A stretch of 64,000 bases of DNA from a virus (lineage: Duplodnaviria > Caudoviricetes), in the IMG/VR virus record IMGVR_UViG_3300011116_001229. One strand, 5' to 3'. Below, piece by piece: positions 4,571 through 57,257 of the stretch (the first letter of the stretch is position 1; each line of letters begins with the position of its first letter). Both the position numbers and the translations under genes were made by a program. A model generated the notes under the pieces. It was not told the origin of the DNA. It was given only the letters and a program-made list of their open reading frames with translations, and did no database searches.

Positions 4571-5704
4571 ATGCAACTCAAGCTGAAGAATCTGCAAGGA
4601 ATCGTCAAAGAGACGATGAAGAGAGAAAAAGCTGCACATCAGTTAATGAAAGAAGCAGTTGAAGTTTTTGGTCCGACTGTTGAAGTCTCAAGCGATCCGC
4701 GCCGAGTTTTCGCAGCGATCAATGATAAATTAACCGTTATGGAAGCGCGCGGCCAAGATCTGCCAGTTGGATCTTTGAGAGTCTCAGCATTATTGTCAGC
4801 TGCTGAAACTAACAAAGAAGCTAGAAAATTAGCAGCAAGATTACTTCCTGAAAAATATGCTGTTAAATTTTTAACTGATAAAGACTCGAGCGTTAGATGC
4901 GCAGCAGCAAAGAGGTTTTCTTATGATCAGCTTGCTGAAACGCTGAGAAGATATCCATTCGATGATCAGCTCTTGACTATAGCACAGCAAAAGCGTCTTT
5001 TTGAAGCAGGAATTCCTACACCAAAATCTGACGATGATCAATTTGATATGTACGGTGACGGTCCTATCGCTGAGATTCTCGATGGATATGAACCAGAAGA
5101 TTTAACAGATGGCTGGTACAAGAGGATGGCTGTTAAGATTTTCAACGATTATAGAGGTAGACTAGACGGTAACTGGAAACACCTAGCTGTTTCAAGGCTC
5201 TGCTCGAGCATATACGCAACGTCTGGCGTCAAAGTCGATTACATGAAACTCACAGAAGAACTCGAAGCAGTGTGTGAGAACTATGGCTTCCTCAAGGAGG
5301 GCTTTGCCTTTGAAGAGACTAAAGAAAGACTTATCTTTGAAGCAGACGAAGCAGAAACTAATGTTATGCCCGTCCTCGATGAGAGCTTCTTTGCTGATCC
5401 TATTAAGGAATTGCTTCGAGAAGGATCTTCAAAAACAAGCTATGTTGACTCTGCAAACAAGCTGTTTAACATTACACATGACTTAATAGAAGAATCACTG
5501 TACACGGGTGATGTGCAATTAGTTGAAGCTCCTCAATATGGACGACTTCCCGGTGGTTATAATTGGAACTCGTCTGCTGAGAAAGCTCTTGATAGATACG
5601 TAAGTAATTGGAATGAAAGAGCAGACGCGAGAGGCTCTAATTGTAGAATTGCTTGGAATTACGGCTTTAACACAAAAATTAACTTTTCAGTGGTGGACAA
5701 ATGA
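4571..5704 (+). CDS. hypothetical protein with N-terminal LQGIVKE motif and HEAT-like segment
   Basis: 377-aa ORF, ATATTTA 4544-4550, SD AGGAG; 'LTDKDSSVRCAAAKR' is HEAT-like. Confidence 0.65.
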   Translation: MQLKLKNLQGIVKETMKREKAAHQLMKEAVEVFGPTVEVSSDPRRVFAAINDKLTVMEARGQDLPVGSLRVSALLSAAETNKEARKLAARLLPEKYAVKFLTDKDSSVRCAAAKRFSYDQLAETLRRYPFDDQLLTIAQQKRLFEAGIPTPKSDDDQFDMYGDGPIAEILDGYEPEDLTDGWYKRMAVKIFNDYRGRLDGNWKHLAVSRLCSSIYATSGVKVDYMKLTEELEAVCENYGFLKEGFAFEETKERLIFEADEAETNVMPVLDESFFADPIKELLREGSSKTSYVDSANKLFNITHDLIEESLYTGDVQLVEAPQYGRLPGGYNWNSSAEKALDRYVSNWNERADARGSNCRIAWNYGFNTKINFSVVDK

Positions 5705-11238: not shown

Positions 11239-11418
11239 ATGAAACAATCGAAGATCTCGGTCGATGAAGAGACCCATAAATTGCTGAAGATATACTGTGC
11301 TCAGCACGGTCTGATTATGAGTCAGTTCACCGCCGAGATCATTCGAGAGAGGATTGGCAATGAAAGAGAAGATCTGCGCACAATGCGAAAAGAAATTTGT
11401 GCCAAAGAATCCATTTAG
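11239..11418 (+). CDS. small ribbon-helix-helix-like DNA-binding protein
   Basis: 'KISVDEETHKLLKIYCAQHGLIMSQFTAEII' RHH pattern; SD GGAG. Confidence 0.55.
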   Translation: MKQSKISVDEETHKLLKIYCAQHGLIMSQFTAEIIRERIGNEREDLRTMRKEICAKESI

Positions 11419-12253
11419 TAATAAGTCTGGTTTCTTCTTTTGCTCGAAAGAGTGCACTTATCTTGCTCAGAAGAAGGGCGGTGTCACATATGAGCTCCGT
11501 CGAAAGAGGTCACTAGAGAAGCACGGCACCGACTTTCCAATGTCTTGCCCTGAGATAAAGAATAAGCGCAGCAACAACAACATAAAAAAGTACGGTGTTG
11601 CCAGCACGTTTGAACTTGATTCAGTCAAAGAGAAGTCAAAAAAGACTTCACGTGAGAAATATGGGGTTGATGTTTACTCACAAACAACAGAATTCAAGTC
11701 CAAGATCGAAGAGACAAATCTAAAGAGATTCGGACATAAGTCTCCGATAGAAAATCCCAACATTCTAGAACGACGACGGCAGACAATGATCGACAGATGG
11801 GGAGGTCCATCAACTTTCGAATCACCTGTTCTACGAGCTCGCGCTGAAGATACCTGTATTGAAAAGTTCGGAGTTCATAATATTGTCTTATCGCCGACGT
11901 TTATCTCTTCTTCCATGGATAAGAAACTGCTCAAATCACATGGAAAAACTTGGCAGCAGTACATCGATGACCTACCTGAATTTCAGGATTATCGAAGAAA
12001 AGTCGATCACTTTACACGCATGCAGCCGATCGAACAGCTAGCCAATCATGATAAACGTGGTGAATATCATCTCGATCACAAGTTTTCAGTCGCTGAAGGG
12101 TTTAGACAAGGTCTACCACCCGAGGTGATAGGTCACATTGTGAATCTGGAATTCATACCGGCTGCAGAAAATCTTCGAAAACAGTCAAGTTGTTCAATTG
12201 ACAAAGACGCATTACTATCAGAATACTCAACTAGAAAGGTAAATCAAAGATGA
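11360..12253 (+). CDS. putative homing endonuclease (Zn finger, KYG repeats, C-terminal HNH-like domain)
   Basis: CxxC...CxxxC, repeated 'KYGV/RFG' units, 'YHLDHKFS...NLEFIP..EN'. Confidence 0.7.
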   Translation: MKEKICAQCEKKFVPKNPFSNKSGFFFCSKECTYLAQKKGGVTYELRRKRSLEKHGTDFPMSCPEIKNKRSNNNIKKYGVASTFELDSVKEKSKKTSREKYGVDVYSQTTEFKSKIEETNLKRFGHKSPIENPNILERRRQTMIDRWGGPSTFESPVLRARAEDTCIEKFGVHNIVLSPTFISSSMDKKLLKSHGKTWQQYIDDLPEFQDYRRKVDHFTRMQPIEQLANHDKRGEYHLDHKFSVAEGFRQGLPPEVIGHIVNLEFIPAAENLRKQSSCSIDKDALLSEYSTRKVNQR

Positions 12254-13968: not shown

Positions 13969-14961
13969 ATGCGTTTTTACATCACAGGTGGTGCAGGTTT
14001 TATTGCTAGACATTTGAAGAAGAATCTGATTGTTAGAGGGCATTCGATTCTCTCGGACGCCGATCTGATCGGTGATGGCATGCTTACCTTGCCCAAGACG
14101 GGTGAAGTCTGTGTGCATCGCAATTCAGAAGACGCTTGGACAAGAGCTTTTGAAAAATACGGCGTTGATGTTGTTGTGCACAATGCAGCTGTGGTGGGAA
14201 CAGACGTGGTTGCTCTCAATCCCGCAGAAGCGACTCTGAGCAACGTGCACGGTTCTTACAATATTGTTAGAGCAGCTAACGCAACTGGTGCCGGCGTGTG
14301 CTACATGGGTACCACCGTGATTTATGACACGCCTTCCTACCAGAACCAGCAAATTTTTGAAGATTCTGTCAGAAAACCACTTACGTACTACGGCGTACAG
14401 AAGCTTGCAGGTGAACAGATCATCACCAGCATGGCAAAACGCTGGTCTGTGGTGCGTCCTCTCTTCGCTTTTGGTGACGAGGGTGACATGAATTCACTCA
14501 TCGCCAAGAGTATCTATGCATCCTTGCAGAACAAAGATTCTGTTGACATCTTCTTAGACCCCGCGAAGATCAAGGATTATCTCCACGTGTCCGATTACTG
14601 TGAAGCCGTGTCGATGATCTGTGAGAGCAAGGATGGTTGGGGTACTGATTTTAACGTCGCAGCTGAGACACCTCACACCGCCGCAGAGATCATGAATCTT
14701 GTTTCTCGTGTTGTCGGGAAAAACGTAGAAAAAATCGTCCGCTGGTATCCAAAGACTGATTATCTCGGAAACCACAGACTGTCATCTGCCAAGGTCAGAA
14801 AGCAAATTGGCTGGTCTCCGAAGCTTGACTTGGAGGGCGGCGTCAAGGCGACTTACGATTGGATTTCTTCAAATTCATCTAAGAACTATAACCCTCTGAA
14901 GTATCTCGATGAAGCTAAGTCGAAAGGTACAGATCTACTGCAACATTTCCCTAAAGTTTGA
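13969..14961 (+). CDS. NAD-dependent epimerase/dehydratase (extended SDR)
   Basis: 'TGGAGFIA', 'HNAA', 'YGVQK' (YxxxK); SD GGAGG. Confidence 0.88.
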   Translation: MRFYITGGAGFIARHLKKNLIVRGHSILSDADLIGDGMLTLPKTGEVCVHRNSEDAWTRAFEKYGVDVVVHNAAVVGTDVVALNPAEATLSNVHGSYNIVRAANATGAGVCYMGTTVIYDTPSYQNQQIFEDSVRKPLTYYGVQKLAGEQIITSMAKRWSVVRPLFAFGDEGDMNSLIAKSIYASLQNKDSVDIFLDPAKIKDYLHVSDYCEAVSMICESKDGWGTDFNVAAETPHTAAEIMNLVSRVVGKNVEKIVRWYPKTDYLGNHRLSSAKVRKQIGWSPKLDLEGGVKATYDWISSNSSKNYNPLKYLDEAKSKGTDLLQHFPKV

Positions 14962-15063
14962 CGTGTAAATAACTAGTATGTGTGTGATGTTCTCCATATT
15001 TATAATGAGTCTCGAGAAAAGATACGGCCTTGTGCCGTAACTATTTGACCACCGGAGGAAACA

Positions 15064-15957
15064 ATGGAGAGTAAATGTGAAGTTTGCGGAATTAGCATAG
15101 AATCAAAACCAAGACTACGTACTTGTTCAAAAAAATGCGGTTACGTGTTGAGAAGTCGTACTAGAAATATAAAACATGAGCCTGTTGAAAAGATATGTCT
15201 CGACTGCGAGTGTAATTTTCAAGATACTTCAAAAAAGAAGTTAGTCGTTAGATGCAAACCATGCATAAACAATTCCATGGTTGCTACACGTTACGCAAGA
15301 GGAAGCTATGAGCGCTCAGAAGAGCAGAACGAGAAATTGTCTATTACGCTTAAGACAAAGTACGAATCAGGATGGAACCCTAACACTGAAGAGCATCGAG
15401 AAAAATTATCCGAGGGAATGAAGGCTCGCTGGCAAGATGGTTCAATGAGAAAGAAGTCGGTTGCAACAACGCTTGAAAAGTATGGAGTTGAGCACTGGGC
15501 GCAGTCTGAAGAAGGAAAGACAGTGCTATCACAGAGGTCAAGAGGCAGAAAATTTTCTGATGAAACTCGTAAAAATATGAGTCAAGGCGCTGCAAGGCGC
15601 ATTAGAGAGAATAATAATCATTATGAACGAGGTAATGGAGGTTTTAGAGAAGACCTCGGACACTATGTACGGAGTAACTGGGAAGCTAATTTTGCTAGAA
15701 TATTAAAAATTCAAGGAAAGTCTTACGAATACGAACCTAAGACATTTCAAATTGCTGAGGATAAAACGTATACACCCGATTTTCTTGTCGATGGTATTTT
15801 CTACGAAGTTAAAGGCTATTGGACCGAAAAATCGAAACTTAAATTAGAATCATTTGTAAAAATATATCCCGAAATAGAATTGCAAATCATCGACGGCACA
15901 AAGTACAATGAGCTTAGAGAAGCTTACCAAGATCTAATTCACTGGGAAGGCAAATAA
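15064..15957 (+). CDS. putative homing endonuclease (Zn fingers, NUMOD3-like, PD-(D/E)xK nuclease)
   Basis: CxxC pairs, 'GRKFSDETRKNMS', 'RSNWEANFAR..YEYEP..YTPDF..EVKG'; SD GGAGG. Confidence 0.75.
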   Translation: MESKCEVCGISIESKPRLRTCSKKCGYVLRSRTRNIKHEPVEKICLDCECNFQDTSKKKLVVRCKPCINNSMVATRYARGSYERSEEQNEKLSITLKTKYESGWNPNTEEHREKLSEGMKARWQDGSMRKKSVATTLEKYGVEHWAQSEEGKTVLSQRSRGRKFSDETRKNMSQGAARRIRENNNHYERGNGGFREDLGHYVRSNWEANFARILKIQGKSYEYEPKTFQIAEDKTYTPDFLVDGIFYEVKGYWTEKSKLKLESFVKIYPEIELQIIDGTKYNELREAYQDLIHWEGK

Positions 15958-15960
15958 TAA

Positions 15961-16056
15961 ATGAACAGCACAAAGGAGAAGAGCTACTTGAAGCTTGAGT
16001 CCGTGCGACCTCCTACTCGGTTTGTGGGGTTTCACGCGCACTCAGGCTTCTCGTAA
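15961..16056 (+). CDS. dnaE: dnaE upstream mini-ORF encoding PHP motif I (…RPPTRFVGFHAHSGFS*)
   Basis: Manual translation of 15961-16056; alternative TTG 15988 is 9 nt after AAGGAG; ends TCG-TAA; missed by ORF track. Confidence 0.8.
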   Translation: MNSTKEKSYLKLESVRPPTRFVGFHAHSGFS

Positions 16057-16063
16057 AGTTACG

Positions 16064-19000
16064 ACATTTGACGGTTTGGGTTACCCTGCAGATCACATTG
16101 CCTTTGTCACCTCTGAGTCACAAGGCATGGATGCCTGGGCACTGACAGATCACGGCAATGGCAACGGACTTGCACACGCACATTCTGCTGCCAAGAAGAT
16201 TCAGAAGAAAGGTGTGAAGTATCGACAGCTCTACGGCGTGGAGTTCTACTTCGTTCCTTCACTTTCGCAGTGGCGTATCGATTACGAGGCCCACAAGCAA
16301 TCAGTCAAGGACGCGAAGTCTGCAGCTGAGGCTGAGAAGAAAGCAAAGATTCGAACTGACATCGACGCTGACGAGGCAGCAGAGGAAGAGGAGGCCGGTG
16401 GCCACGTCGTGGAGGATGAGGCAGAGACGAAGGCCGACGACTACAAGGAGAAGCCTGACTGGCAGCGTCGTTACCACCTCGTGGCAGTGGCGCAGTCAGC
16501 TGAGGGGCTCGCGAACATCAACCGTCTCGTCAAGGCATCATTTAAAGACGGATTCTACCGTTATCCACGCATCGACTTCGACCTCCTCAGAAAGTGGGGC
16601 AAAGGGATCGTGTGGTCGAGCGCCTGCCTCGGCGGAACAATGGCGGGTACAATTCTACGAGGCGTAGCACATAATAGAACTTCTGAGCAAATTATTGCTG
16701 ATCTTGAAGTTCTCACAGGTCAGTTCGTCGAAGCAGTCGGCCAAGAGAACTTCTTCCTCGAACTGCAATTCAATAAGCTCGAGAAACAACACACCGTAAA
16801 CAAGTACCTCATCGACCTGTCTCGAAAGACCGGTGTGAAGCTGCTGGCCACATGCGACTCTCACTATCCAGATCCCTCCAAGTGGCAGGCCCGTGAGCTC
16901 TACAAGAAGCTGGGCTGGATGGGCACGAAGCTAGACGAGCAAGCACTACCGAAGTTCGAGGACCTGAAGTGCGAGCTGTATCCCAAGAACGCTACCCAGA
17001 TGTGGGACGAGTTCAAGAAGTCCTACGAACAGTACGACTTCTACAAGGGTTCCGAGGAGGAAGTTCGTGACGCGATCGAGCGGACTCACGACGTCGCTTG
17101 GCAGCATTGCGAGGACACTTGGGTCGATGTGAAACCAAAGCTGCCCAAGGTCGACACACCAGAAAAAACAGCATTCCAGCAGCTCACTGAGCTTGTTAAA
17201 GAAGGTCTTACCCGCGAAGGTCTTGCTGATAAGCCTGAGTATGTCGATCGAGCTAAATATGAGCTCGGAGACATCAAATATCTGAATTGTGCTTCTTACT
17301 TCATTACGATGTATAAAGTGTTCAATCTTGCGAAGGAGAAGACGCTCTTTGGAAGCGGCCGCGGGAGTGGTGCGGGATCGCTCGTCAACTTCCTGTTAGG
17401 CATCACGCAGATCGATCCGATACCATACGGTTTGCTTTGGAGCAGATTTTTAGGACGACACCGAGTGAGCTTTCCGGATATCGATACAGACGCAGGTGAC
17501 AGGGATGTCCTTATCGATGCGGCACGAACTCTGTTCGGCGATGACGCCGTGATCCCGGTGTCCAACTTCAACACCCTGAAGCTCAAGTCCCTCGTCAAGG
17601 ACATCGCCAAGATCTACGGCGTGCCCTTCGAGGAGGTGAACGAGATGACCGGCCCTCTCCAGGACGAGGTGATGCCGCTGGCTCGAGACGAGGACCAGGA
17701 GAAGTCGGTCTTCGTGCTGAAGCATGAGGACTGCATGAAGTACTCGCCGAAGTACACGGCCTTCATGGAGAAGTATCCTGACGTTGCTGCACACGTCGAG
17801 ACACTGTTCATGCAGAACAGGTCCATCGGAAGGCATGCAGGAGGCGTACTCTTAGCAGATCCTGAAGATCTTGCTGCAAACATGCCTATCATTGGCGTCA
17901 GAGGCGAGCTGCAGACACCGTGGACAGAGGGTATGAACTTCCGCAATCTGGAGGATAACGGCTTCTTGAAGTTTGACTTCCTAGGTCTCACGCTTCTCAA
18001 AGATGTCGAGAACTGCATTAGACGCATTCTCATCAAGAATGGCAATCTTGATCCTACCTTCCTGGACATTAGAGGCTTCTTCGACAAGCATCTAAACTGT
18101 CGATACGTGAAGCAGGACGATCCTGCTGTGTGGAAGCATGTCTACCAGGACGGCTCGTTTGTGTCAGTCTTCCAGATGACTGCAGAGGGTGCTCGGAAGT
18201 TCTGCAAGGCAGTTAAACCGACGAAGATCGAAGACCTCACAGCTATTACAGCGATCTACCGCCCTGGGCCTCTCAAAGCAAACGTGCACAACCTCTTTGT
18301 CGAAGCTAGAAAGCTTGACAAGATCAATTACCCACACCCAATCATCGAGCAAGTCCTTGGACCTACGAAAAATTTCGTTGTGTATCAGGAACAATTTATG
18401 TTGTTAGCAGAAAAACTAGGTGGCTTTACACCTGGTGAAGCTGATCAGCTGCGCAAGACGCTAGTTAAGAAGTCGCTTGACACGCTGGACAAAAAGTCAT
18501 CAGAGAAGGAGCTTGCTAAGCAGAAGTTTATTGAGGGTGCTCAGCGACTTCACGGAGTTCCTCCAGAAGTGACCGAGCCTCTTTGGCAAACAATTGACAA
18601 CATGAGCGTCTATTGTTTCAATAAATCCCACAGTTTAGCATATGCTATCGATTCCTACTATGCAGCATGGCTTCATACACACTACGAGAAAGAGTGGCTG
18701 GCAACTGCACTTCAATCAGCTTCCAGCAACCCAAAAGAACTTGCGAAGACGATCTCCGAGATCAAGGCGTTAGGCTTCAAGTTCTCGAAGCACGACATCA
18801 ACTACTCGGGCAAGGAGTGGCAGTTCTCTGAGGAGGCCGATGCTTTCGTGCCGCCTCTCGGTTCAGTGAAGGGAATTGGATCTGCAGCAGTTGAAGAGAT
18901 CATGGCGAACAGGCCCTACAAGGATCTAGCTACTATGCTCTATGACGACGCAGGTGAGTGGCGACACAGCAAGGTGAACAAGACAGCTCTGTCAGCTCTT

Positions 19001-19594
19001 TGCAAGATTGATGCGCTTTCTTCTTTGGAAGATTTTAATCTAGGTAGAGTTAATAATCATAAGCAACTTCTAATGGCTTTGACAGATGACAAGAATTACG
19101 AGATGCTTCGACGTGGTCTCTACGGCCTGACTGCATCGCAGCTGAAGAAGAAAGCTAAGGCCGGCGAAAAGATCGAAGCTTTCTTGGATCTAATGCTTAC
19201 ATCGCTAACAAATGTCGAAGATTGGTCTCGAGAAGAAAAGATTGAGATGTGTCAAGATTTAACACAATCTGTGGACACTGACCTGCTGTTTCCTCCCGCA
19301 GTCATGGAAAAGATTGCAGAAAAAAATGTTCCAAAACTTCATGATGTACCAGCAGGGGCTGAGGGAATAGGATGGTTCTGCGTTGCTGAAATTCAAATGA
19401 AGAAAACTAAGAATGGTAAAGTTTTCTATCGAATTAAAGCAACAGACGATGAACATCGAACAGCTTGGGTTAGAGCATGGGGAACTCCAAAGGAAGAAAT
19501 TCGTCCATACACACTTTGGGTTGCTCAAGTTCAAAATGATCCAAACTGGGGATTCTCAACGTCTGTGTATAAGATGCGTGAACTAGTTGGGTGA
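16064..19594 (+). CDS. dnaE: DNA polymerase III alpha subunit, main ORF (continues mini-ORF after 10-nt gap, +1 frame)
   Basis: 'TFDG', 'ALTDHGN', 'GVEFY', 'GRGSGAGS', 'FPDIDTD', 'KFDFLGL', 'FNKSHS'. Confidence 0.95.
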   Translation, partial: TFDGLGYPADHIAFVTSESQGMDAWALTDHGNGNGLAHAHSAAKKIQKKGVKYRQLYGVEFYFVPSLSQWRIDYEAHKQSVKDAKSAAEAEKKAKIRTDIDADEAAEEEEAGGHVVEDEAETKADDYKEKPDWQRRYHLVAVAQSAEGLANINRLVKASFKDGFYRYPRIDFDLLRKWGKGIVWSSACLGGTMAGTILRGVAHNRTSEQIIADLEVLTGQFVEAVGQENFFLELQFNKLEKQHTVNKYLIDLSRKTGVKLLATCDSHYPDPSKWQARELYKKLGWMGTKLDEQALPKFEDLKCELYPKNATQMWDEFKKSYEQYDFYKGSEEEVRDAIERTHDVAWQHCEDTWVDVKPKLPKVDTPEKTAFQQLTELVKEGLTREGLADKPEYVDRAKYELGDIKYLNCASYFITMYKVFNLAKEKTLFGSGRGSGAGSLVNFLLGITQIDPIPYGLLWSRFLGRHRVSFPDIDTDAGDRDVLIDAARTLFGDDAVIPVSNFNTLKLKSLVKDIAKIYGVPFEEVNEMTGPLQDEVMPLARDEDQEKSVFVLKHEDCMKYSPKYTAFMEKYPDVAAHVETLFMQNRSIGRHAGGVLLADPEDLAANMPIIGVRGELQTPWTEGMNFRNLEDNGFLKFDFLGLTLLKDVENCIRRILIKNGNLDPTFLDIRGFFDKHLNCRYVKQDDPAVWKHVYQDGSFVSVFQMTAEGARKFCKAVKPTKIEDLTAITAIYRPGPLKANVHNLFVEARKLDKINYPHPIIEQVLGPTKNFVVYQEQFMLLAEKLGGFTPGEADQLRKTLVKKSLDTLDKKSSEKELAKQKFIEGAQRLHGVPPEVTEPLWQTIDNMSVYCFNKSHSLAYAIDSYYAAWLHTHYEKEWLATALQSASSNPKELAKTISEIKALGFKFSKHDINYSGKEWQFSEEADAFVPPLGSVKGIGSAAVEEIMANRPYKDLATMLYDDAGEWRHSKVNKTALSALCKIDALSSLEDFNLGRVNNHKQLLMALTDDKNYEMLRRGLYGLTASQLKKKAKAGEKIEAFLDLMLTSLTNVEDWSREEKIEMCQDLTQSVDTDLLFPPAVMEKIAEKNVPKLHDVPAGAEGIGWFCVAEIQMKKTKNGKVFYRIKATDDEHRTAWVRAWGTPKEEIRPYTLWVAQVQNDPNWGFSTSVYKMRELVG

Positions 19595-41968: not shown

Positions 41969-42781
41969 TTATTTAGAAGAGTTTTCTTGAGGTTGTTGTT
42001 CTAACAACCTTCGTTTTTCTTCACGATTTTTAGCTTGAGTCTTGCGTCTTTTTTCAATCGTTTCTTGAGAAGGAGAAGGTCTGGGCTTTCCCTTTTGGGA
42101 TTCTGACATTCTTTTTTTCGTTTCTTCTGAACGTTTTCTTCCTTTACTAACGGCAGATAACTTTTGCCTCGTTTCTTCTGAAACTGGCTTTTTATTCTCT
42201 GCTATCTTTTTCTTTTGTTCTTCCGTAAGCTTCCACTTTCTTCTGGCTTCAGAAAGCTTTCTTCGATGTTCTTCTGATTTAGGACCGGTATTTTTCCCCT
42301 TCATAGACTCAGACATTTTGCGAAGTGTTTCTTCAGAATGAGGTGGAGGTTTTTTGCCTTTGTTGACTTCCCGAAGCTTTTGTTTATGTTCTTCAGAAAG
42401 ATGTTTGCCACGGAATGAAGAACCTCGTATATAACGTTGTTCATCTGAAAGATTTGAATTTGCTTCTTTTATCTTTTGTATTGTTTCAGTTGAAAACTCA
42501 AAATGATCGCCGCCAGACGTTAGGTTATAACCTCGTTTAAAAGAATCGAATCTTTCTATCCATACACGTTCTCGTTCATTTGTAACTTCATCTTCACACT
42601 CTTCTATTATTTCGAATGTAAAGTTTTCTTTACCGTATTTTCTAATAGCAGCGTGAAATTTATATCCTGTTCCTTTTAACGCTTCACAAAGATGACCCCT
42701 TACTCTTTTGTTAAAATCTTTTGTTTGTCCTACATAACATTTACCATCTAACAAATTTTTTGCCAAATAAATAAACCGCAT
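41969..42781 (-). CDS. GIY-YIG homing endonuclease with NUMOD3 repeats
   Basis: 'FIYLAKN...CYVGQT', 'GYN', repeated 'HSEET.RKMSE'; ATACTTA 5 nt upstream. Confidence 0.88.
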   Translation of the reverse strand: MRFIYLAKNLLDGKCYVGQTKDFNKRVRGHLCEALKGTGYKFHAAIRKYGKENFTFEIIEECEDEVTNERERVWIERFDSFKRGYNLTSGGDHFEFSTETIQKIKEANSNLSDEQRYIRGSSFRGKHLSEEHKQKLREVNKGKKPPPHSEETLRKMSESMKGKNTGPKSEEHRRKLSEARRKWKLTEEQKKKIAENKKPVSEETRQKLSAVSKGRKRSEETKKRMSESQKGKPRPSPSQETIEKRRKTQAKNREEKRRLLEQQPQENSSK

Positions 42782-42865: not shown

Positions 42866-44800
42866 TCACGAATCTCTCCAGAGGTTATTTGTGGCAAAAA
42901 CGAGGACCTCCTCGGCGGATTCTGGAGAATATGAGTAATCACGGATCATGGTTTCAACCATGTCACTGTACTTCTTCTGCTGTTCATCATTCCTCGTCTT
43001 AGACTTGGTGATGATTCTTGCCATTGTTCTAACTGAAGATATCAAGAATGACTCGATTGCATTCTTGAGCGGCTCGTAAGTCTTGTAAGAAACCTTTTCA
43101 CCTCGTCTCATCTTGGCAAACATGTAAGCTGTGACATCGGATCGGAAGCCGTCCTTTGCTGAACCTGTGACGCCGATCTGCTCTTCAATAGACACCATGA
43201 ATTGCTCATCAGGCTTGCGCTCTTCTTTGGTGATCCTATCCTTGAGCTTTGATCTCGTTGTGTAAGCCTCAGCATTATCGAGGTAAGAGTCAAAGAGAGA
43301 CTGTGCTTGTTCCTCATATGCTGAGATGAAAGCCTTGGCAATCTCGGTCTCTAGGATTTTGAGGTACTCTTCTCGAATTGTTTTCTGAAGAAGCTCTAGG
43401 CACTTTGACTTGAATTGCTCATCGACAATTTGCTCTTTCACCATCTTGGTCAAAGAATCCATGATAGAGATTGGTGTGATCATGTTCTTGTCGGATGCTG
43501 TAAGAGCATTGTCAAGAGCCTTCGTGATGAACCGCGTAGAGATGCCATCAAGACCTTCGTGCTTCGCTTCCTCCCTAAGGTCCTTGATGTCGACCTTGCG
43601 AACCCTTCCCTTTTCGAGGACGTCTTCACCGTTGTAGATCTTCATCTTGGTGAGGAGGTCACACTTGGCAGAATCCTTGAGACGGCTCATGACTGAGAAC
43701 ATTGAAGCAATCTTTAGGGTGTGCGGAGCGATATGTGACTCGAAGTCCGACTTGCCCAACATCTTCTCGTAGATCTTTACTTCTTGATTTAGCTCAAGGC
43801 AGTAAGGAACGGAGATCTTCACGATGCGGTCCATGATGGCTTCGTTGGTGTGCTCAGACTTAAATCTGTTCCATTCAGCCTCGTTGCAGTGTGCTAGGAT
43901 AACACCGTCGAAGTGAAGCATGTCGGACTTACCAGGAGATGGGACTCGCTTTTCCTGCGTTGCTGTGATGATGGTGTGGAGGAACTCAATCTCGTTCTTG
44001 AAGACCTCGACGAGTTCAACGATACCACGATTACCCACGTTGAATGCACCGTTAAGAGAAAGAGCTCTTGGATCATCTTCTGCGTACTTATCAAGTTTCG
44101 AGATGTCGACGGAGCCGATGAGAACGGAAACGTCTTGCGAGTTAGCATCCATTGGAGGAACAGAGGCTACGCCACGTCTGCCGCGCTGTGAGAAGGTAAC
44201 TTCTTCAACCTCGAAGTCCTCGTACTTGCCAGCGTAATCGTTGAGAAGCTTGTGACGAGCGACAGGAGAAATGTCACCGTCAATTTTCACGTTGATAGCC
44301 GCTTCGATTGATGGGCGGAGCGAACGTGGGATGAGTTGTAGAGGTTCACCGCGGTGAGGATCGCCTTTGAGGGTGTAGTACTTCTTTCCTTCGAGAGCCT
44401 TTTTGATGTGCTCTGTTAGCGCAGACTTACCTGCGCCGACTGGACCCATGAGCAAGAGGACCTGACGAGATTCTTCACCCTTGTGAGCCGCGGAAGACAA
44501 GAAGCTCATGACCTTCTCGATGACTGTCTCCATTCCGAAGAACTCCCCCTCGAAGTACTTGTGAATCTTGATGTTCTCGCCGTCGAAAATCTTATTTTTT
44601 CTTGGATCAGAATCTGGCAGGACATAAGAACCATGTTCAGAAATTGCGTCGAAAAGTCTCTTGTGAGCAGACTTGACAACAGCTGGATCTTTCTCAACCA
44701 TCTCGATGTAGTCCATCAAATTACCTGAGAATTTCTTGGTCTTGCTTGATTCTTCTCTTGCTGATTTAATCTGTTGTAGAAGTTGTTTCTTGATGCTCAT
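42866..44800 (-). CDS. prkA: PrkA/YeaG family AAA+ serine kinase
   Basis: 'FFGME', Walker A 'GPVGAGKS', 'GNRGIVELVEVFK', 'GISTRF'. Confidence 0.92.
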   Translation of the reverse strand: MSIKKQLLQQIKSAREESSKTKKFSGNLMDYIEMVEKDPAVVKSAHKRLFDAISEHGSYVLPDSDPRKNKIFDGENIKIHKYFEGEFFGMETVIEKVMSFLSSAAHKGEESRQVLLLMGPVGAGKSALTEHIKKALEGKKYYTLKGDPHRGEPLQLIPRSLRPSIEAAINVKIDGDISPVARHKLLNDYAGKYEDFEVEEVTFSQRGRRGVASVPPMDANSQDVSVLIGSVDISKLDKYAEDDPRALSLNGAFNVGNRGIVELVEVFKNEIEFLHTIITATQEKRVPSPGKSDMLHFDGVILAHCNEAEWNRFKSEHTNEAIMDRIVKISVPYCLELNQEVKIYEKMLGKSDFESHIAPHTLKIASMFSVMSRLKDSAKCDLLTKMKIYNGEDVLEKGRVRKVDIKDLREEAKHEGLDGISTRFITKALDNALTASDKNMITPISIMDSLTKMVKEQIVDEQFKSKCLELLQKTIREEYLKILETEIAKAFISAYEEQAQSLFDSYLDNAEAYTTRSKLKDRITKEERKPDEQFMVSIEEQIGVTGSAKDGFRSDVTAYMFAKMRRGEKVSYKTYEPLKNAIESFLISSVRTMARIITKSKTRNDEQQKKYSDMVETMIRDYSYSPESAEEVLVFATNNLWRDS

Positions 44801-44832
44801 AGTATTTATTGTACTTATTGTTAGGTGTTTGA

Positions 44833-46143
44833 TTAATCAATTTCCCAAGGTTCTTCTTCTACAATAGTGTAGAATTTGACCGGTTTGCCCCAGAGGTGTT
44901 TGACGTGTTCAACCACCTCGTCAGCATGTTTTAATTCAAGATCACGTCCGTCATGCTCATGCCTTATCACTAACAGTCCGTCTTTCTTTAACTCATCAAC
45001 ATAAACGACGGGTATTGAACCCCCCGCTACATTTGCGATGAGGTCTTCTTTCACTTCCTTCCAGCCTTTTTCATCTGAAACGTCATCAACTGTGACACCT
45101 GATTTTTTCTTAGATGAATAGCTAAAAAGATTTAGATCAACGCAATCCTCTTCGGTTAGATACTGTCGTAAGAACGAAACATCGTAACAGACTTCGCGAG
45201 CCAAGAAGCACTCGTCAATTCCGTGTCGTTCTTTAATTTTTTGGAAAAGATGGAATCCAAGGTGGTAGGGATTAATGGAACCAATATGTGGGCGCACAAC
45301 AGCGTTATGCATCTTGATGATGGGGATGTGAAGTTCTCCAGGAAGATCTAGTTCGTGACAGAGCGTATAGTGCCAGTACGAAGCCCAGCCCTCGTTCATG
45401 ATCTTTGTCTGGATCTGTGGCCAAAAATATTGACCTTCTTCGCGACACACATGAATGATATCACGCTTCCATTCAGGAATGTCAGCATTGTCTTCTATGA
45501 ATCCTAATAAGTCGTAGTCGGGTTCAAGTGGGTATGTGTCTAGATTGAAATCTTTGTATTTGCTTTCGTCTTTGTTGCTGTTGATTTCCTCAATATACTC
45601 AGCTTTAATTTCATCGTGTGATCTTCTGATTTGCCCGTATTTTGTCGTCTGAAATTGCAGGGCCTGACAGGCATCTAGTGTTCTCTCGACTTTTTCAATT
45701 CCAATGTGCTGATCTTCTACGTACTTTTGGATTCTCTTCTTTGCAGAACGTAAACGCTGGATCACGGATTCGGGACGCGTGTTCTTGAACATCCTGTTGT
45801 TCTTGAAGAAATCAGAGTGTCCGACGCAGTGCGCCATGATGAGAATCTGAAGATATAACGGATTCTCTCTCATAAGATACGCCAACGACGGATTGCTATT
45901 GATGATAAGCTCGTAGGGCAATCCTTCGGCACCGAGGTTGTAGCGATTCATTGTCTGTTCGAAAGACTTGCCGAAAGACCAGTGGGAATACATGGACGGC
46001 ATGCCGTGATGTACCATTGCGCCGATCATCTCATGATAATCAACGACTTCGTAATCTAAGTCAAACCAGTCGAGATTATGATTTTTAGCTAACTCAATGA
46101 TTCGTTCGTCCCAAGTCTTAAGATCTTCAAGCTTATAATCCAT
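44833..46143 (-). CDS. spoVR: SpoVR/YcgB family protein
   Basis: 'HWSFGK', 'YELIINSNP', 'AHCVGHSDFFKNN', 'KIMNEGWASYWH', 'NPYHLG'; ATG overlaps yeaH stop (TAATG). Confidence 0.92.
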   Translation of the reverse strand: MDYKLEDLKTWDERIIELAKNHNLDWFDLDYEVVDYHEMIGAMVHHGMPSMYSHWSFGKSFEQTMNRYNLGAEGLPYELIINSNPSLAYLMRENPLYLQILIMAHCVGHSDFFKNNRMFKNTRPESVIQRLRSAKKRIQKYVEDQHIGIEKVERTLDACQALQFQTTKYGQIRRSHDEIKAEYIEEINSNKDESKYKDFNLDTYPLEPDYDLLGFIEDNADIPEWKRDIIHVCREEGQYFWPQIQTKIMNEGWASYWHYTLCHELDLPGELHIPIIKMHNAVVRPHIGSINPYHLGFHLFQKIKERHGIDECFLAREVCYDVSFLRQYLTEEDCVDLNLFSYSSKKKSGVTVDDVSDEKGWKEVKEDLIANVAGGSIPVVYVDELKKDGLLVIRHEHDGRDLELKHADEVVEHVKHLWGKPVKFYTIVEEEPWEID

Positions 46144-47303
46144 TATTGTGCCTCCACTGTGCCATTCATCAGATTCAAGAAGCTCGGCCAAACGTCCTCT
46201 TTCTTTTGAATTCTCACTTGCTTTAATTTATTGCCTTGAAGGGGCTTAAGAAGTGAGTATATCTTGTCAGGTGCTGTCGACCAATTAGCATCCGGTTCTA
46301 TTTCGCAGTAGCCGTACAGTTGAATCGACGTGAGAAGCTTTCTTGCTTCATTTAGAAAATTCTCATTATCGTCAGAGAAGTTGTCTCCATCTGAACACTG
46401 GAAAAGGTAAACGTTCCACGAGTTGGGATGGAATCTCTTGCTCATGATGTCGGAGGCAAGCTTGAGCGCAGACGAGGCTCTAGTCCCGCCAGTTGATGCT
46501 TTTTCGAAGAAGTCTTTTTCTTCAACTTCTTGTGCTTCTGTGTCGTGAGAAATAAAGACGATCTCTATCGTCTCGTACTTGAGCCTGAGGAACTGATACA
46601 GGAGAAAGAAGAAAGATCTCGCTAAAAACTTCTTATCCTGTGACATGGACCCCGACACATCCATGACAAAGAAGATGACTGCATTCGTGCACGGCTTCTT
46701 TGTAATCTTATAATGTCTGTACTTCAGATCGTCTTCGTGAAAGGGAAAACTGTCATCTTCAGAATTTTCATGATCAAAGCCTGCTGCCTTCATCCTTTTG
46801 ATCCTAGCAATTGCAGATTTTTTGCGATCAAGTCGAGGTATGATACCCTCAGTTCTATAGCCTTTTCTCTTCAACTTTTCTGTGTCAATATTGCTTAATT
46901 GACGCTTCTGCAATTCAGGAAGTTGCAGTTCTGAGAAGAGGTATTCAGCGAGTTCTTCATGTGTAATCTCTACGTCGTAGTATTCTTCACCTTTGTCACC
47001 GCTTGCTTTGTTTGGTTGACCCTGTCCTTCGGGCGGAGGATCACCAATCTTCTGACCTCTCTTGACGTCTTTTCCTGGTGCTGATCCTACTTGTTTACCG
47101 TTGCTGCCGTAAACAAATCTGTACTCTTTTATTCCTCTGACTGGAATGCGGTACTTTTGCTTACCATCCTTGCCGATGATGCTTTCATCGGCAACAATGT
47201 GGTGAATTCCCTCGCGTATCGCCTTTTCGATCTTCTGCTTGTGTCGGCGCCGATCTGATGCAGTTCGATCTGCGACAGTTTTGTGTTCTCGAAAAATACT
47301 CAT
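46143..47303 (-). CDS. yeaH: YeaH/YhbH (DUF444) vWA-domain protein
   Basis: 'DRRRH', 'MDVSGSM', 'FISHDTEA', 'GGT..SSA', 'SDGDN'. Confidence 0.92.
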   Translation of the reverse strand: MSIFREHKTVADRTASDRRRHKQKIEKAIREGIHHIVADESIIGKDGKQKYRIPVRGIKEYRFVYGSNGKQVGSAPGKDVKRGQKIGDPPPEGQGQPNKASGDKGEEYYDVEITHEELAEYLFSELQLPELQKRQLSNIDTEKLKRKGYRTEGIIPRLDRKKSAIARIKRMKAAGFDHENSEDDSFPFHEDDLKYRHYKITKKPCTNAVIFFVMDVSGSMSQDKKFLARSFFFLLYQFLRLKYETIEIVFISHDTEAQEVEEKDFFEKASTGGTRASSALKLASDIMSKRFHPNSWNVYLFQCSDGDNFSDDNENFLNEARKLLTSIQLYGYCEIEPDANWSTAPDKIYSLLKPLQGNKLKQVRIQKKEDVWPSFLNLMNGTVEAQ

Positions 47304-57094: not shown

Positions 57095-57181
57095 TGGTGG
57101 AACGGGAAGGATTCGAACCTTCGTAGACATGACGTCAAAGCGTTTACAGCGCTTCCCCTTTAACCTCTCGGGCACCATTCC
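57095..57181 (-). tRNA. tRNA-Tyr(GUA), long variable arm, CCA encoded
   Basis: GGAATGG/CCGTTCC acceptor, anticodon loop CTGTAAA, GAAGG-TTCGAAT-CCTTC, ACCA. Confidence 0.92.
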
Positions 57182-57185
57182 ATAG

Positions 57186-57257
57186 AGCCGCCCGTGGGAG
57201 TCAAACCCACCTGATCCTCATTACAAGTGAGGTGCATGATCGCTATGCTAGAGCGGC
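57186..57257 (-). tRNA. tRNA-Thr(UGU), no encoded CCA
   Basis: GCCGCTC/GGGCGGC acceptor, CCTCA-CTTGTAA-TGAGG, GTGGG-TTTGACT-CCCAC. Confidence 0.82.

Follow-up and report, generated by a model that had tools for sequence, protein, structure and literature searches.

To our knowledge there are few natural cases of programmed translational bypassing, namely gene 60 of phage T4 with its homologs, the byp inserts of yeast mitochondria and a case proposed for the Streptomyces phage phiHau3. The byp inserts of Magnusiomyces capitatus are 27–55 nucleotides (nt) long. Here we analyse the DNA polymerase gene dnaE of an uncultured freshwater phage (Caudoviricetes; IMG/VR record IMGVR_UViG_3300011116_001229), contained in a stretch of 64,000 nt that we refer to as the window, in which a 10-nt stop-containing insert separates the first codons of the polymerase from the remainder of the gene and lies a short distance downstream of a nuclease gene. 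Comparison with related sequences indicates that this nuclease-borne gap is most likely an independent counterpart of the T4 gene 60 bypass. Ribosome hopping from TCG 16051 to ACG 16061 would best explain the window, and on the comparative evidence we give this reading a probability of roughly three in four.

In T4 the order of the MobA element is nuclease, unique N-terminal extension, homologous replacement and a bypass cassette ending at the landing codon, and the gap protects its carrier from MobA (bioRxiv 10.1101/2022.08.31.505936); the location of the 50-nt bypass of gene 60 on this element goes back to Bonocora et al. 2011, as cited in the same source. Refolding of a 5' stem that pulls the mRNA has been proposed for gene 60, according to the title of bioRxiv 10.1101/2024.12.09.627546. 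For phiHau3, two 10-nt inserts in the terminase gene were proposed to be bypassed (Smith et al. 2013, via PMC10732093). The same source reports a junction peptide detected by mass spectrometry in E. coli once the A-site codon was made UAA, names as the natural trigger the rare Leu codon UUA and the host bldA tRNA, and relates the proposal that the system is a lysis/lysogeny sensor (PMC10732093). It also records up to 12 mitochondrial byps in one coding sequence of M. capitatus (Lang et al. 2014, via PMC10732093). Full-text literature searches returned no published description of dnaE bypassing or of this nuclease cassette; one candidate (PMC4351075) was rejected, as it concerns a tape-measure gene and not dnaE.

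The split dnaE gene and its relatives

The two pieces of dnaE, and the sequence that lies between them, are as follows.

16006–16053 (+): replacement dnaE 5' end, RPPTRFVGFHAHSGFS, holding PHP motif I with its HxH metal ligands; the peptide fits the family consensus and the last codon is the take-off codon TCG 16051–16053
16051–16064 (+): mini-palindrome TCGTAA-AG-TTACGA, spanning take-off to landing codon; foldable as a stem of 5 base pairs (bp) with a 4-nt loop
16054–16063 (+): 10-nt insert, consisting of TAA (16054–16056), AGTT (16057–16060) and the landing codon ACG (16061–16063), without counterpart in 127 uninterrupted relatives
16064–19594 (+): main dnaE frame, with resume codon ACA at 16064, reading TFDGLGYP and ending in a stop at 19592–19594; 51–88% identical to 160 environmental phage loci

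The frame opened by ATG 15961 has 31 codons (MNSTKEKSYLKLESVRPPTRFVGFHAHSGFS), the last of which read FVGFHAHSGFS and end in TCG at 16051–16053, directly before the stop TAA at 16054–16056. The +1 frame runs through ACG at 16061–16063 and then ACA TTT GAC GGT (TFDG) from 16064, staying open until 19594, and its domains are PHP, DNA_pol3_alpha, finger and HHH_6 (Pfam E-values 5e-49, 9e-36, 5e-18 and 4e-10); the frame at 16064–19594 is a complete DnaE (DNA polymerase III alpha). Re-reading of the frames and the Pfam domains thus bear out the original prediction, which had split dnaE between a frame from ATG 15961 to TAA 16054 and a +1 frame from TFDG at 16064 to 19594, with the correction that the +1 frame opens as early as TTG 15995, in a stretch of 23 upstream codons that lacks homology to DnaE. 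Removal of 16054–16063, as had been suggested, gives HAHSGFS-TFDG, the exact spacing found in 126 of the 127 uninterrupted relatives. The hairpin claimed at 16051–16064 rests on a true palindrome of 6+2+6 nt; a loop of 2 nt is impossible, however, and the 5-bp fold has a z-score (z) of −0.5.

The insert is genuine DNA. Seven runs, each from a different study, gave Logan contigs that span positions 16040–16080 with 0 gaps and 0 mismatches. The samples were viromes or metagenomes of lakes, rivers and estuaries; three of these runs are possible sources of the window, and the rest are independent. The interrupted allele is thus present in seven studies, which were sampled across several years. One run that looked RNA-like, X20, is probably DNA and ends before the junction.

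Relatives were drawn from IMG/VR and metagenome contigs, giving 160 dnaE loci (numbered with the prefix L) with DnaE proteins 51–88% identical, many of them on contigs of 100–285 kb; the 5' end of the gene was readable in 156. GenBank phages gave no DNA-level match to the window and a protein identity of at most ~29%, and at that identity none of the phages in the INPHARED collection (August 2025) is similar enough to be used as an experimental system. The motif RFVGLHAHSGFSTFDGLGYP is uninterrupted, with invariant spacing, at 126 of the 156 loci, and L079 is also uninterrupted, with one extra in-frame codon. A stop-containing insert at the same PHP motif is present at 29 loci (19 distinct sequences), with lengths among these relatives of 5, 9, 10, 11, 12, 38, 39 or 40 nt. 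Including cases added from the neighbours of nuclease-gene homologs, 17 insert types were counted in all.

5 nt, take-off after GFS: L084, L166
9 nt, take-off after GFS, four types: L012; L014 group; L152; L162
10 nt, take-off after GFS, three types: window; L168/L169; L072/L111
11 nt, take-off after GFS, two types: L036; L171
12 nt, take-off after GFS, two types: L023 group; L128
38 nt, take-off three codons earlier (after HAHS), three types: L058; L102; L105
39 nt, take-off after HAHS: L112, L170
40 nt, take-off after HAHS: L081–L083, L088

The original prediction had asked whether gap, stop and hairpin co-vary in related phages; in the relatives, stop-containing gaps recur at the same motif, with landing codons that are TCN or ACN. 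All 17 types end their upstream frame on a Ser codon (TCG or TCC), directly followed by TAA, TAG or TGA. The triplet that precedes resumption is a TCN in 12 types and an ACN in the other five, the window being among the latter. Take-off TCG is paired with landing TCG, TCA, TCT or ACG, and take-off TCC with TCC, TCT or ACT. The ACG landing of the window has parallels in L168/L169, L084/L166 and L102 and so is not a one-off. Of all cassettes that of L168/L169 is the closest; its gap, TGA AGTT ACG, differs from that of the window solely by TAA to TGA, a change that retains the stop and converts an A-U pair of the mini-hairpin to G.U.

Relative to the upstream frame, the inserts shift the reading by 0 (9, 12 and 39 nt), +1 (10 and 40 nt, including the window) or +2 (5, 11 and 38 nt). 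Because all three frames are represented, frameshifting, readthrough or a reassigned stop cannot be the common solution, and stop-codon reassignment is further ruled out by the occurrence of all three stops. Re-pairing of a peptidyl-tRNA-Ser at a downstream codon, in contrast, could serve all insert types.

Both pieces of the gene are under purifying selection and are therefore taken to be translated, so that dnaE works in its interrupted form. The ratio of non-synonymous to synonymous substitution rates (dN/dS) of the downstream open reading frame (ORF) is 0.04–0.07 between interrupted genes, with dS saturated, and its 1176-codon frame is unbroken in all 19 distinct interrupted sequences. In the 16 codons upstream of the gap, window and L084 differ by nine synonymous and 0 non-synonymous changes.

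The upstream stem-loop, nuclease gene and cassette

The strongest RNA signal at the locus is a long 5' stem-loop ending at the take-off codon, and not the 14-nt mini-hairpin. It is formed in part by codons that precede the conserved dnaE sequence.

15961–16005 (+): cassette-encoded DnaE N-terminal extension of 15 residues, MNSTKEKSYLKLESV, with an internal AAGGAG at 15973–15978 and TTG 15988 as alternative start
15990–16050 (+): 5' stem-loop, in which the 5' arm 15990–16008 (extension) pairs with the 3' arm 16032–16050 (HAHSGF codons), the last pair being at nt −1 before take-off

For the 75 nt of the window that lead up to the take-off codon, the predicted fold has −31.5 kcal/mol (z −3.0). 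Fifteen of the 16 insert types examined share this stem-loop design, which is seen at either take-off position; the 5-nt type L084 is the exception. The mean minimum free energy is −26.8 for 19 distinct interrupted sequences and −10.5 for 95 uninterrupted ones (Mann-Whitney p ~1e-10), and the mean z of the fold upstream of take-off is −3.0 and +0.2, respectively; the stem-loop is absent from the 95 uninterrupted controls. Covariation between types affects most positions of the stem, and some pairs are G.U, an indication of RNA and not DNA. The recurrence of 'EK' or 'KEMRDV' in the extensions is explained by the stem as well, since these residues translate the complement of GGCTTC or CACGCGCAT.

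Between the start codon and the F of RFVG lie 15–24 codons in interrupted genes; for uninterrupted genes (87 distinct ones) the median is 11. Window and L168 agree in every nucleotide of the extension (100%) and differ in the following 16 codons at seven synonymous sites, which is consistent with constraint at the nucleotide level. Nearly all types have an AAGGAG-like element 0–12 nt to the 5' side of the 5' arm. It sits at the expected ancestral dnaE ribosome-binding site, and initiation may take place from TTG 15988 through AAGGAG.

The gaps of 38–40 nt are themselves strongly folded (z −3 to −6), and they too show compensatory changes. These GC-rich hairpins were considered as intrinsic terminators and rejected, as their 3' tails are not consistent U-runs. 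Pairing of the gap with sequence 5' of the 5' arm was similarly rejected as a general feature, failing in the window and in most types; it is significant only in the 9-nt L012/L014/L028 types (0.01–0.05 of random gaps match, and there is one compensatory change).

The extension is preceded by a nuclease gene, P0003, and by a short stretch that follows an epimerase gene.

14972–15063 (+): probable left end of the cassette, flanked by the epimerase gene (stop at 14961) and the nuclease gene; holds CTAGTATGTGT, and its exact boundary is our inference
15064–15957 (+): homing-endonuclease-like gene P0003 (297 amino acids), with Cys-rich and NUMOD3-like N-terminal parts and a C-terminal PD-(D/E)xK domain

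The nuclease domain of P0003 is of T7 endonuclease I type (PDB 1m0d, 1e-6; phrog_945 'endonuclease', 2e-13) and its match to NUMOD3 is weak; taken together, the domains suggest a free-standing homing endonuclease. A homolog of P0003 lies directly upstream of dnaE at 19 of the 29 interrupted loci and at 0 of the 127 uninterrupted ones, some loci having C-terminal remnants alone, and all seven distant or close nuclease homologs with fetched contigs adjoin dnaE.

The distribution of the interruption is patchy. A DnaE tree, built on the first 330 residues after the motif, requires 11–14 gains or losses of the interruption, and near-identical DnaEs are found in different states (L105/L069, L012/L013, L152/L153 and L058/L059, as well as L084 with 5 nt and L082 with 40 nt). 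When 11 phylogenetically independent pairs were compared, presence of the nuclease differed in the same direction as the interruption in ~6.5 and in the opposite direction in 0 (sign test p ~0.016). The distance from the end of the epimerase gene to the dnaE motif is 37–136 nt at most empty sites and 1017–1084 nt with a full cassette, the window having 1063 nt. Three lineages (L012, the L014 group and L036) still have, ahead of the nuclease gene, a truncated remainder of the old 5' end of dnaE, consisting of ribosome-binding site, start and codons to HSHSTF or HGHTG, and severed within two codons of the bypass site. These survivors indicate that the element entered dnaE at this motif. The motif TAGTATGT, which has a single occurrence in the window, is also found 3' of the truncated old fragment in L012 and L036; it was rejected as a universal left end of the cassette because it is exact in three lineages only.

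From these observations a mobile cassette of ~1 kb between the epimerase gene and dnaE is well supported, as is its mobility. The gap is the 3' end of this cassette, which brings a new start, the N-terminal extension and a replacement of the lost codons. Several loci have kept the gap and lost the nuclease (L111, L058 and L081–L083) or retain remnants of it (L105 and L112), and such loci correspond to 'hit-and-run' states. Three variant contigs from three further studies (X16, X17 and X19), covering 15967–16257, are identical to the window from the 3' end of the nuclease gene or the extension to position 16098, beyond which they differ from it at 6 of 45 (X16), 10 of 69 (X19) and 28 of 159 (X17) positions. 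This mosaic boundary, ~35 nt past the landing codon, suggests recent transfer of the cassette with a short co-conversion tract.

L112 is 90% identical to the window in the epimerase and 87% in DnaE, yet has a 39-nt hairpin gap at HAHS and a nuclease remnant of 31 residues, and L170 carries the 39-nt gap of L112 with an intact nuclease gene. Closely related phages thus carry different cassette variants. Extra sequence of 1.3–1.9 kb is found inside the dnaE genes of L045, L055, L057, L059, L069, L072, L077, L078, L080, L112 and L171; that of L171 has an Intein_splicing match and L059 has a nuclease-like segment at 5308–5481, so that dnaE in this phage group is a hotspot for several kinds of selfish element.

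Probable ribosome hopping and its alternatives

Programmed hopping, as put forward in the original prediction, is the one reading compatible with both the window and its relatives, and is supported by the combination of inserts of 5–40 nt in three frames, the succession of Ser, stop and landing codons, and selection on both pieces of the gene. We envisage the following sequence of events. The nuclease would probably cut uninterrupted dnaE at the PHP motif, its predicted target, and the insert would immunise the genome that carries it, as the 50-nt T4 gap does against MobA. A ribosome with peptidyl-tRNA-Ser on TCG 16051 would then pause with TAA in the A site; the anticodon would unpair, the mRNA would slide by 10 nt and the tRNA would re-pair on ACG 16061 at two of three positions, so that decoding would restart at ACA 16064 and yield HAHSGFS-TFDG. 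At take-off the 3' arm of the 15990–16050 stem would be inside the ribosome, and its re-pairing with the 5' arm waiting on the exit side would pull the mRNA forward after codon and anticodon have separated. The cassette-specific N-terminal extension is a candidate nascent-peptide signal.

The original prediction had suggested a possible regulatory switch, but immunity of the cassette to its own nuclease is a likelier reason for the insert. We lean towards a joint reading in which hops of 5–12 nt are a recurrent, selected outcome of homing-endonuclease immunisation of carriers at protein motifs that cannot be changed, the hop would be driven mainly by the cassette-built 5' stem-loop zipping behind the ribosome, and the window would be the case with a near-cognate ACG landing; we hold this combination somewhat less firmly than hopping itself.

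Several points weigh against these interpretations. The landing codon ACG is a Thr codon that matches the take-off TCG at only two of three positions, so efficiency may be low or the product off by one residue. There is no Shine-Dalgarno-like element in the 7-nt gap TAAAGTT, which has no room for one; an AAGGAG lies 73 nt upstream, beside the 5' arm of the stem. The mini-hairpin (5-bp stem and 4-nt loop, in local context) is no more stable than 26% of shuffles, and at this z it is, alone, not beyond chance. P0003 reaches 9e-7 and 29.0 bits against the Pfam family PF05367 (Phage_endo_I), just under the cut-off of 29.1 bits. Lastly, two distant nuclease homologs (L161 and L164) adjoin an uninterrupted dnaE, so that the link between nuclease and insert is strong and not obligatory.

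Two alternatives come next, both improbable. One is +1 frameshifting at TCG-TAA-A, a shifty stop of prfB type that would give a DnaE with three extra residues (GFS-KVT-TFDG). The +1 offset of the window fits this, stops in the A site are classically what triggers +1 shifts, and L079 tolerates an insertion of one residue at the same place; but the slipped tRNA-Ser would face CGU, with which it has no re-pairing potential, and the upstream sequence TCAGGCTTC is without a Shine-Dalgarno element 3 nt before the site. Frameshifting would not rescue relatives with the same cassette and in-frame (9, 12 and 39 nt) or +2 (5, 11 and 38 nt) inserts, and the spacing of the motif, invariant in 126 of 127 uninterrupted genes, argues against three added residues.

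The other, which we rate no higher, is a DnaE made in two pieces, namely the 31-residue peptide and a fragment reinitiated at, for example, TTG 16076, associating non-covalently like T4 gp39/gp60. Insertions of homing endonucleases can indeed split genes into working subunits, as in the T4 topoisomerase, and selection on both pieces would fit this outcome equally. However, downstream of the stop neither the window nor the in-frame 9-nt types offer a start codon equipped with a ribosome-binding site. A restart at TTG 16076 would lose the conserved Asp of FDG, and the model would leave the matched landing codons and the stem-loop ending at take-off without a role.

A pseudogene or tolerated lesion, with another polymerase replicating the phage and the insert as a scar of nuclease repair, is very unlikely. 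Scars are to be expected at the junction of a mobile element, which is where the insert lies, and a second polymerase could in principle be encoded elsewhere in the genome, but the downstream frame is intact under the strong constraint described above (19 distinct sequences, dN/dS 0.04–0.07), the 16 upstream codons change synonymously only, the same interrupted allele persists in seven studies over several years, and in L168 the stop is preserved as a stop (TAA to TGA).

Removal of the 10 nt from the mRNA, whether as a micro-intron or through cleavage and ligation at the hairpin, is less likely still, even though the gap lies within a palindrome. The micro-intron offered as an option in the original prediction finds no support: no Rfam family (intron or ribozyme) was found in 14900–16400, and gaps in the same cassette family go down to 5 nt, too short for an intron. 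We know of no mechanism that excises 5–12 nt from bacterial mRNA, and a Ser codon, a stop and a matching landing codon are features of translation, which argues against RNA excision. A sequencing or assembly artefact is refuted by the contigs from seven studies, identical across 16040–16080, and by the presence of related inserts in dozens of unrelated assemblies.

In practice, gene callers truncate or split such polymerase genes, and essential genes of uncultured large aquatic phages are thereby mis-annotated.

Other features lie elsewhere in the window. A second free-standing homing-endonuclease gene occupies 41969–42781 (−), a short way downstream of the PrkA gene. It is of GIY-YIG type, with NUMOD3 in three copies (Pfam 2.5e-11 and 2.5e-15), and its neighbour genes look intact. 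The adjoining trio prkA, DUF444 (yeaH-like) and spoVR at 42866–47303 (−) has strong Pfam matches and is an unusual auxiliary set for a phage; its DUF444 and SpoVR ORFs overlap by 49 nt. An ORF at 11354–12253 (+) matches DUF7487 (2e-23), a family that the N-terminal part of P0003 also matches weakly, and may be another mobile DNA-binding or nuclease gene. Adjacent genes for tRNA-Tyr(GTA) and tRNA-Thr(TGT) are present at 57095–57257 (−); the tRNA-Thr(UGU) would read the resume codon ACA, which is probably a coincidence.

Comparison with known bypass systems

The window shares with +1 frameshifting in prfB the use of a stop in the A site as a pause signal, and a frame change of +1. It differs in having neither a slippery P-site codon nor a Shine-Dalgarno sequence 3 nt upstream, and in that its relatives need shifts of 0 or +2.

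The byps of M. capitatus are likewise short mobile non-coding inserts, many in number, in conserved coding sequences that are skipped in translation. Those are in yeast mitochondria and, in the text consulted, have no nuclease associated with them, whereas the dnaE gaps are in phages, occur at one site per gene and are nuclease-borne.

phiHau3 is the closest case by gap size, with a 10-nt, +1-frame insert in an essential phage gene that is missing from homologs; a stem-loop lies near it, and there is an internal Shine-Dalgarno sequence. The trigger in the window is a true stop, TAA, and not UUA, and the insert is part of a mobile element; no homing endonuclease cassette is described for phiHau3 in the passages of PMC10732093 consulted.

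The closest parallel in overall organisation is to mobA and gene 60 of T4. In both systems a free-standing nuclease gene has inserted into an essential replication gene at a conserved position, the order of the cassette is the same, and a gap that begins with a stop ends at the landing codon. Both have matched take-off and landing codons (the window's own pair, TCG/ACG, being near-matched) and both show a patchy distribution, repeated insertion and 'hit-and-run' loss of the nuclease. The details differ throughout. The nuclease here is PD-(D/E)xK (T7 endonuclease I-like), whereas MobA is HNH, and the target is dnaE, which is not split into two subunits, rather than a topoisomerase gene. The gaps are mostly 5–12 nt in dnaE and 50 nt in gene 60 (20 nt in one clade), take-off is at Ser and not at Gly, and the short dnaE gaps are without a Shine-Dalgarno-like element. 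The 5' stem-loop, which is the best-conserved feature of the dnaE family, lacks such conservation in the homologs of gene 60. The two systems share no sequence homology, and given the different nuclease family and target gene we consider their resemblance to be convergent, that is, analogous and not homologous.

The dnaE family would therefore represent an independent, non-homologous origin of the pairing between a homing endonuclease and a bypass gap, with different signals. It also offers 17 natural gap variants at a single site, ranging in length between 5 and 40 nt, with matched or near-matched landing codons and a strongly conserved 5' stem-loop, which makes it possible to test what drives the forward sliding of the mRNA, how strictly the landing codon must pair and how short a hop can be. 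If our reading is true, natural bypassing is a family-wide phenomenon with dozens of variants and not a curiosity of T4.

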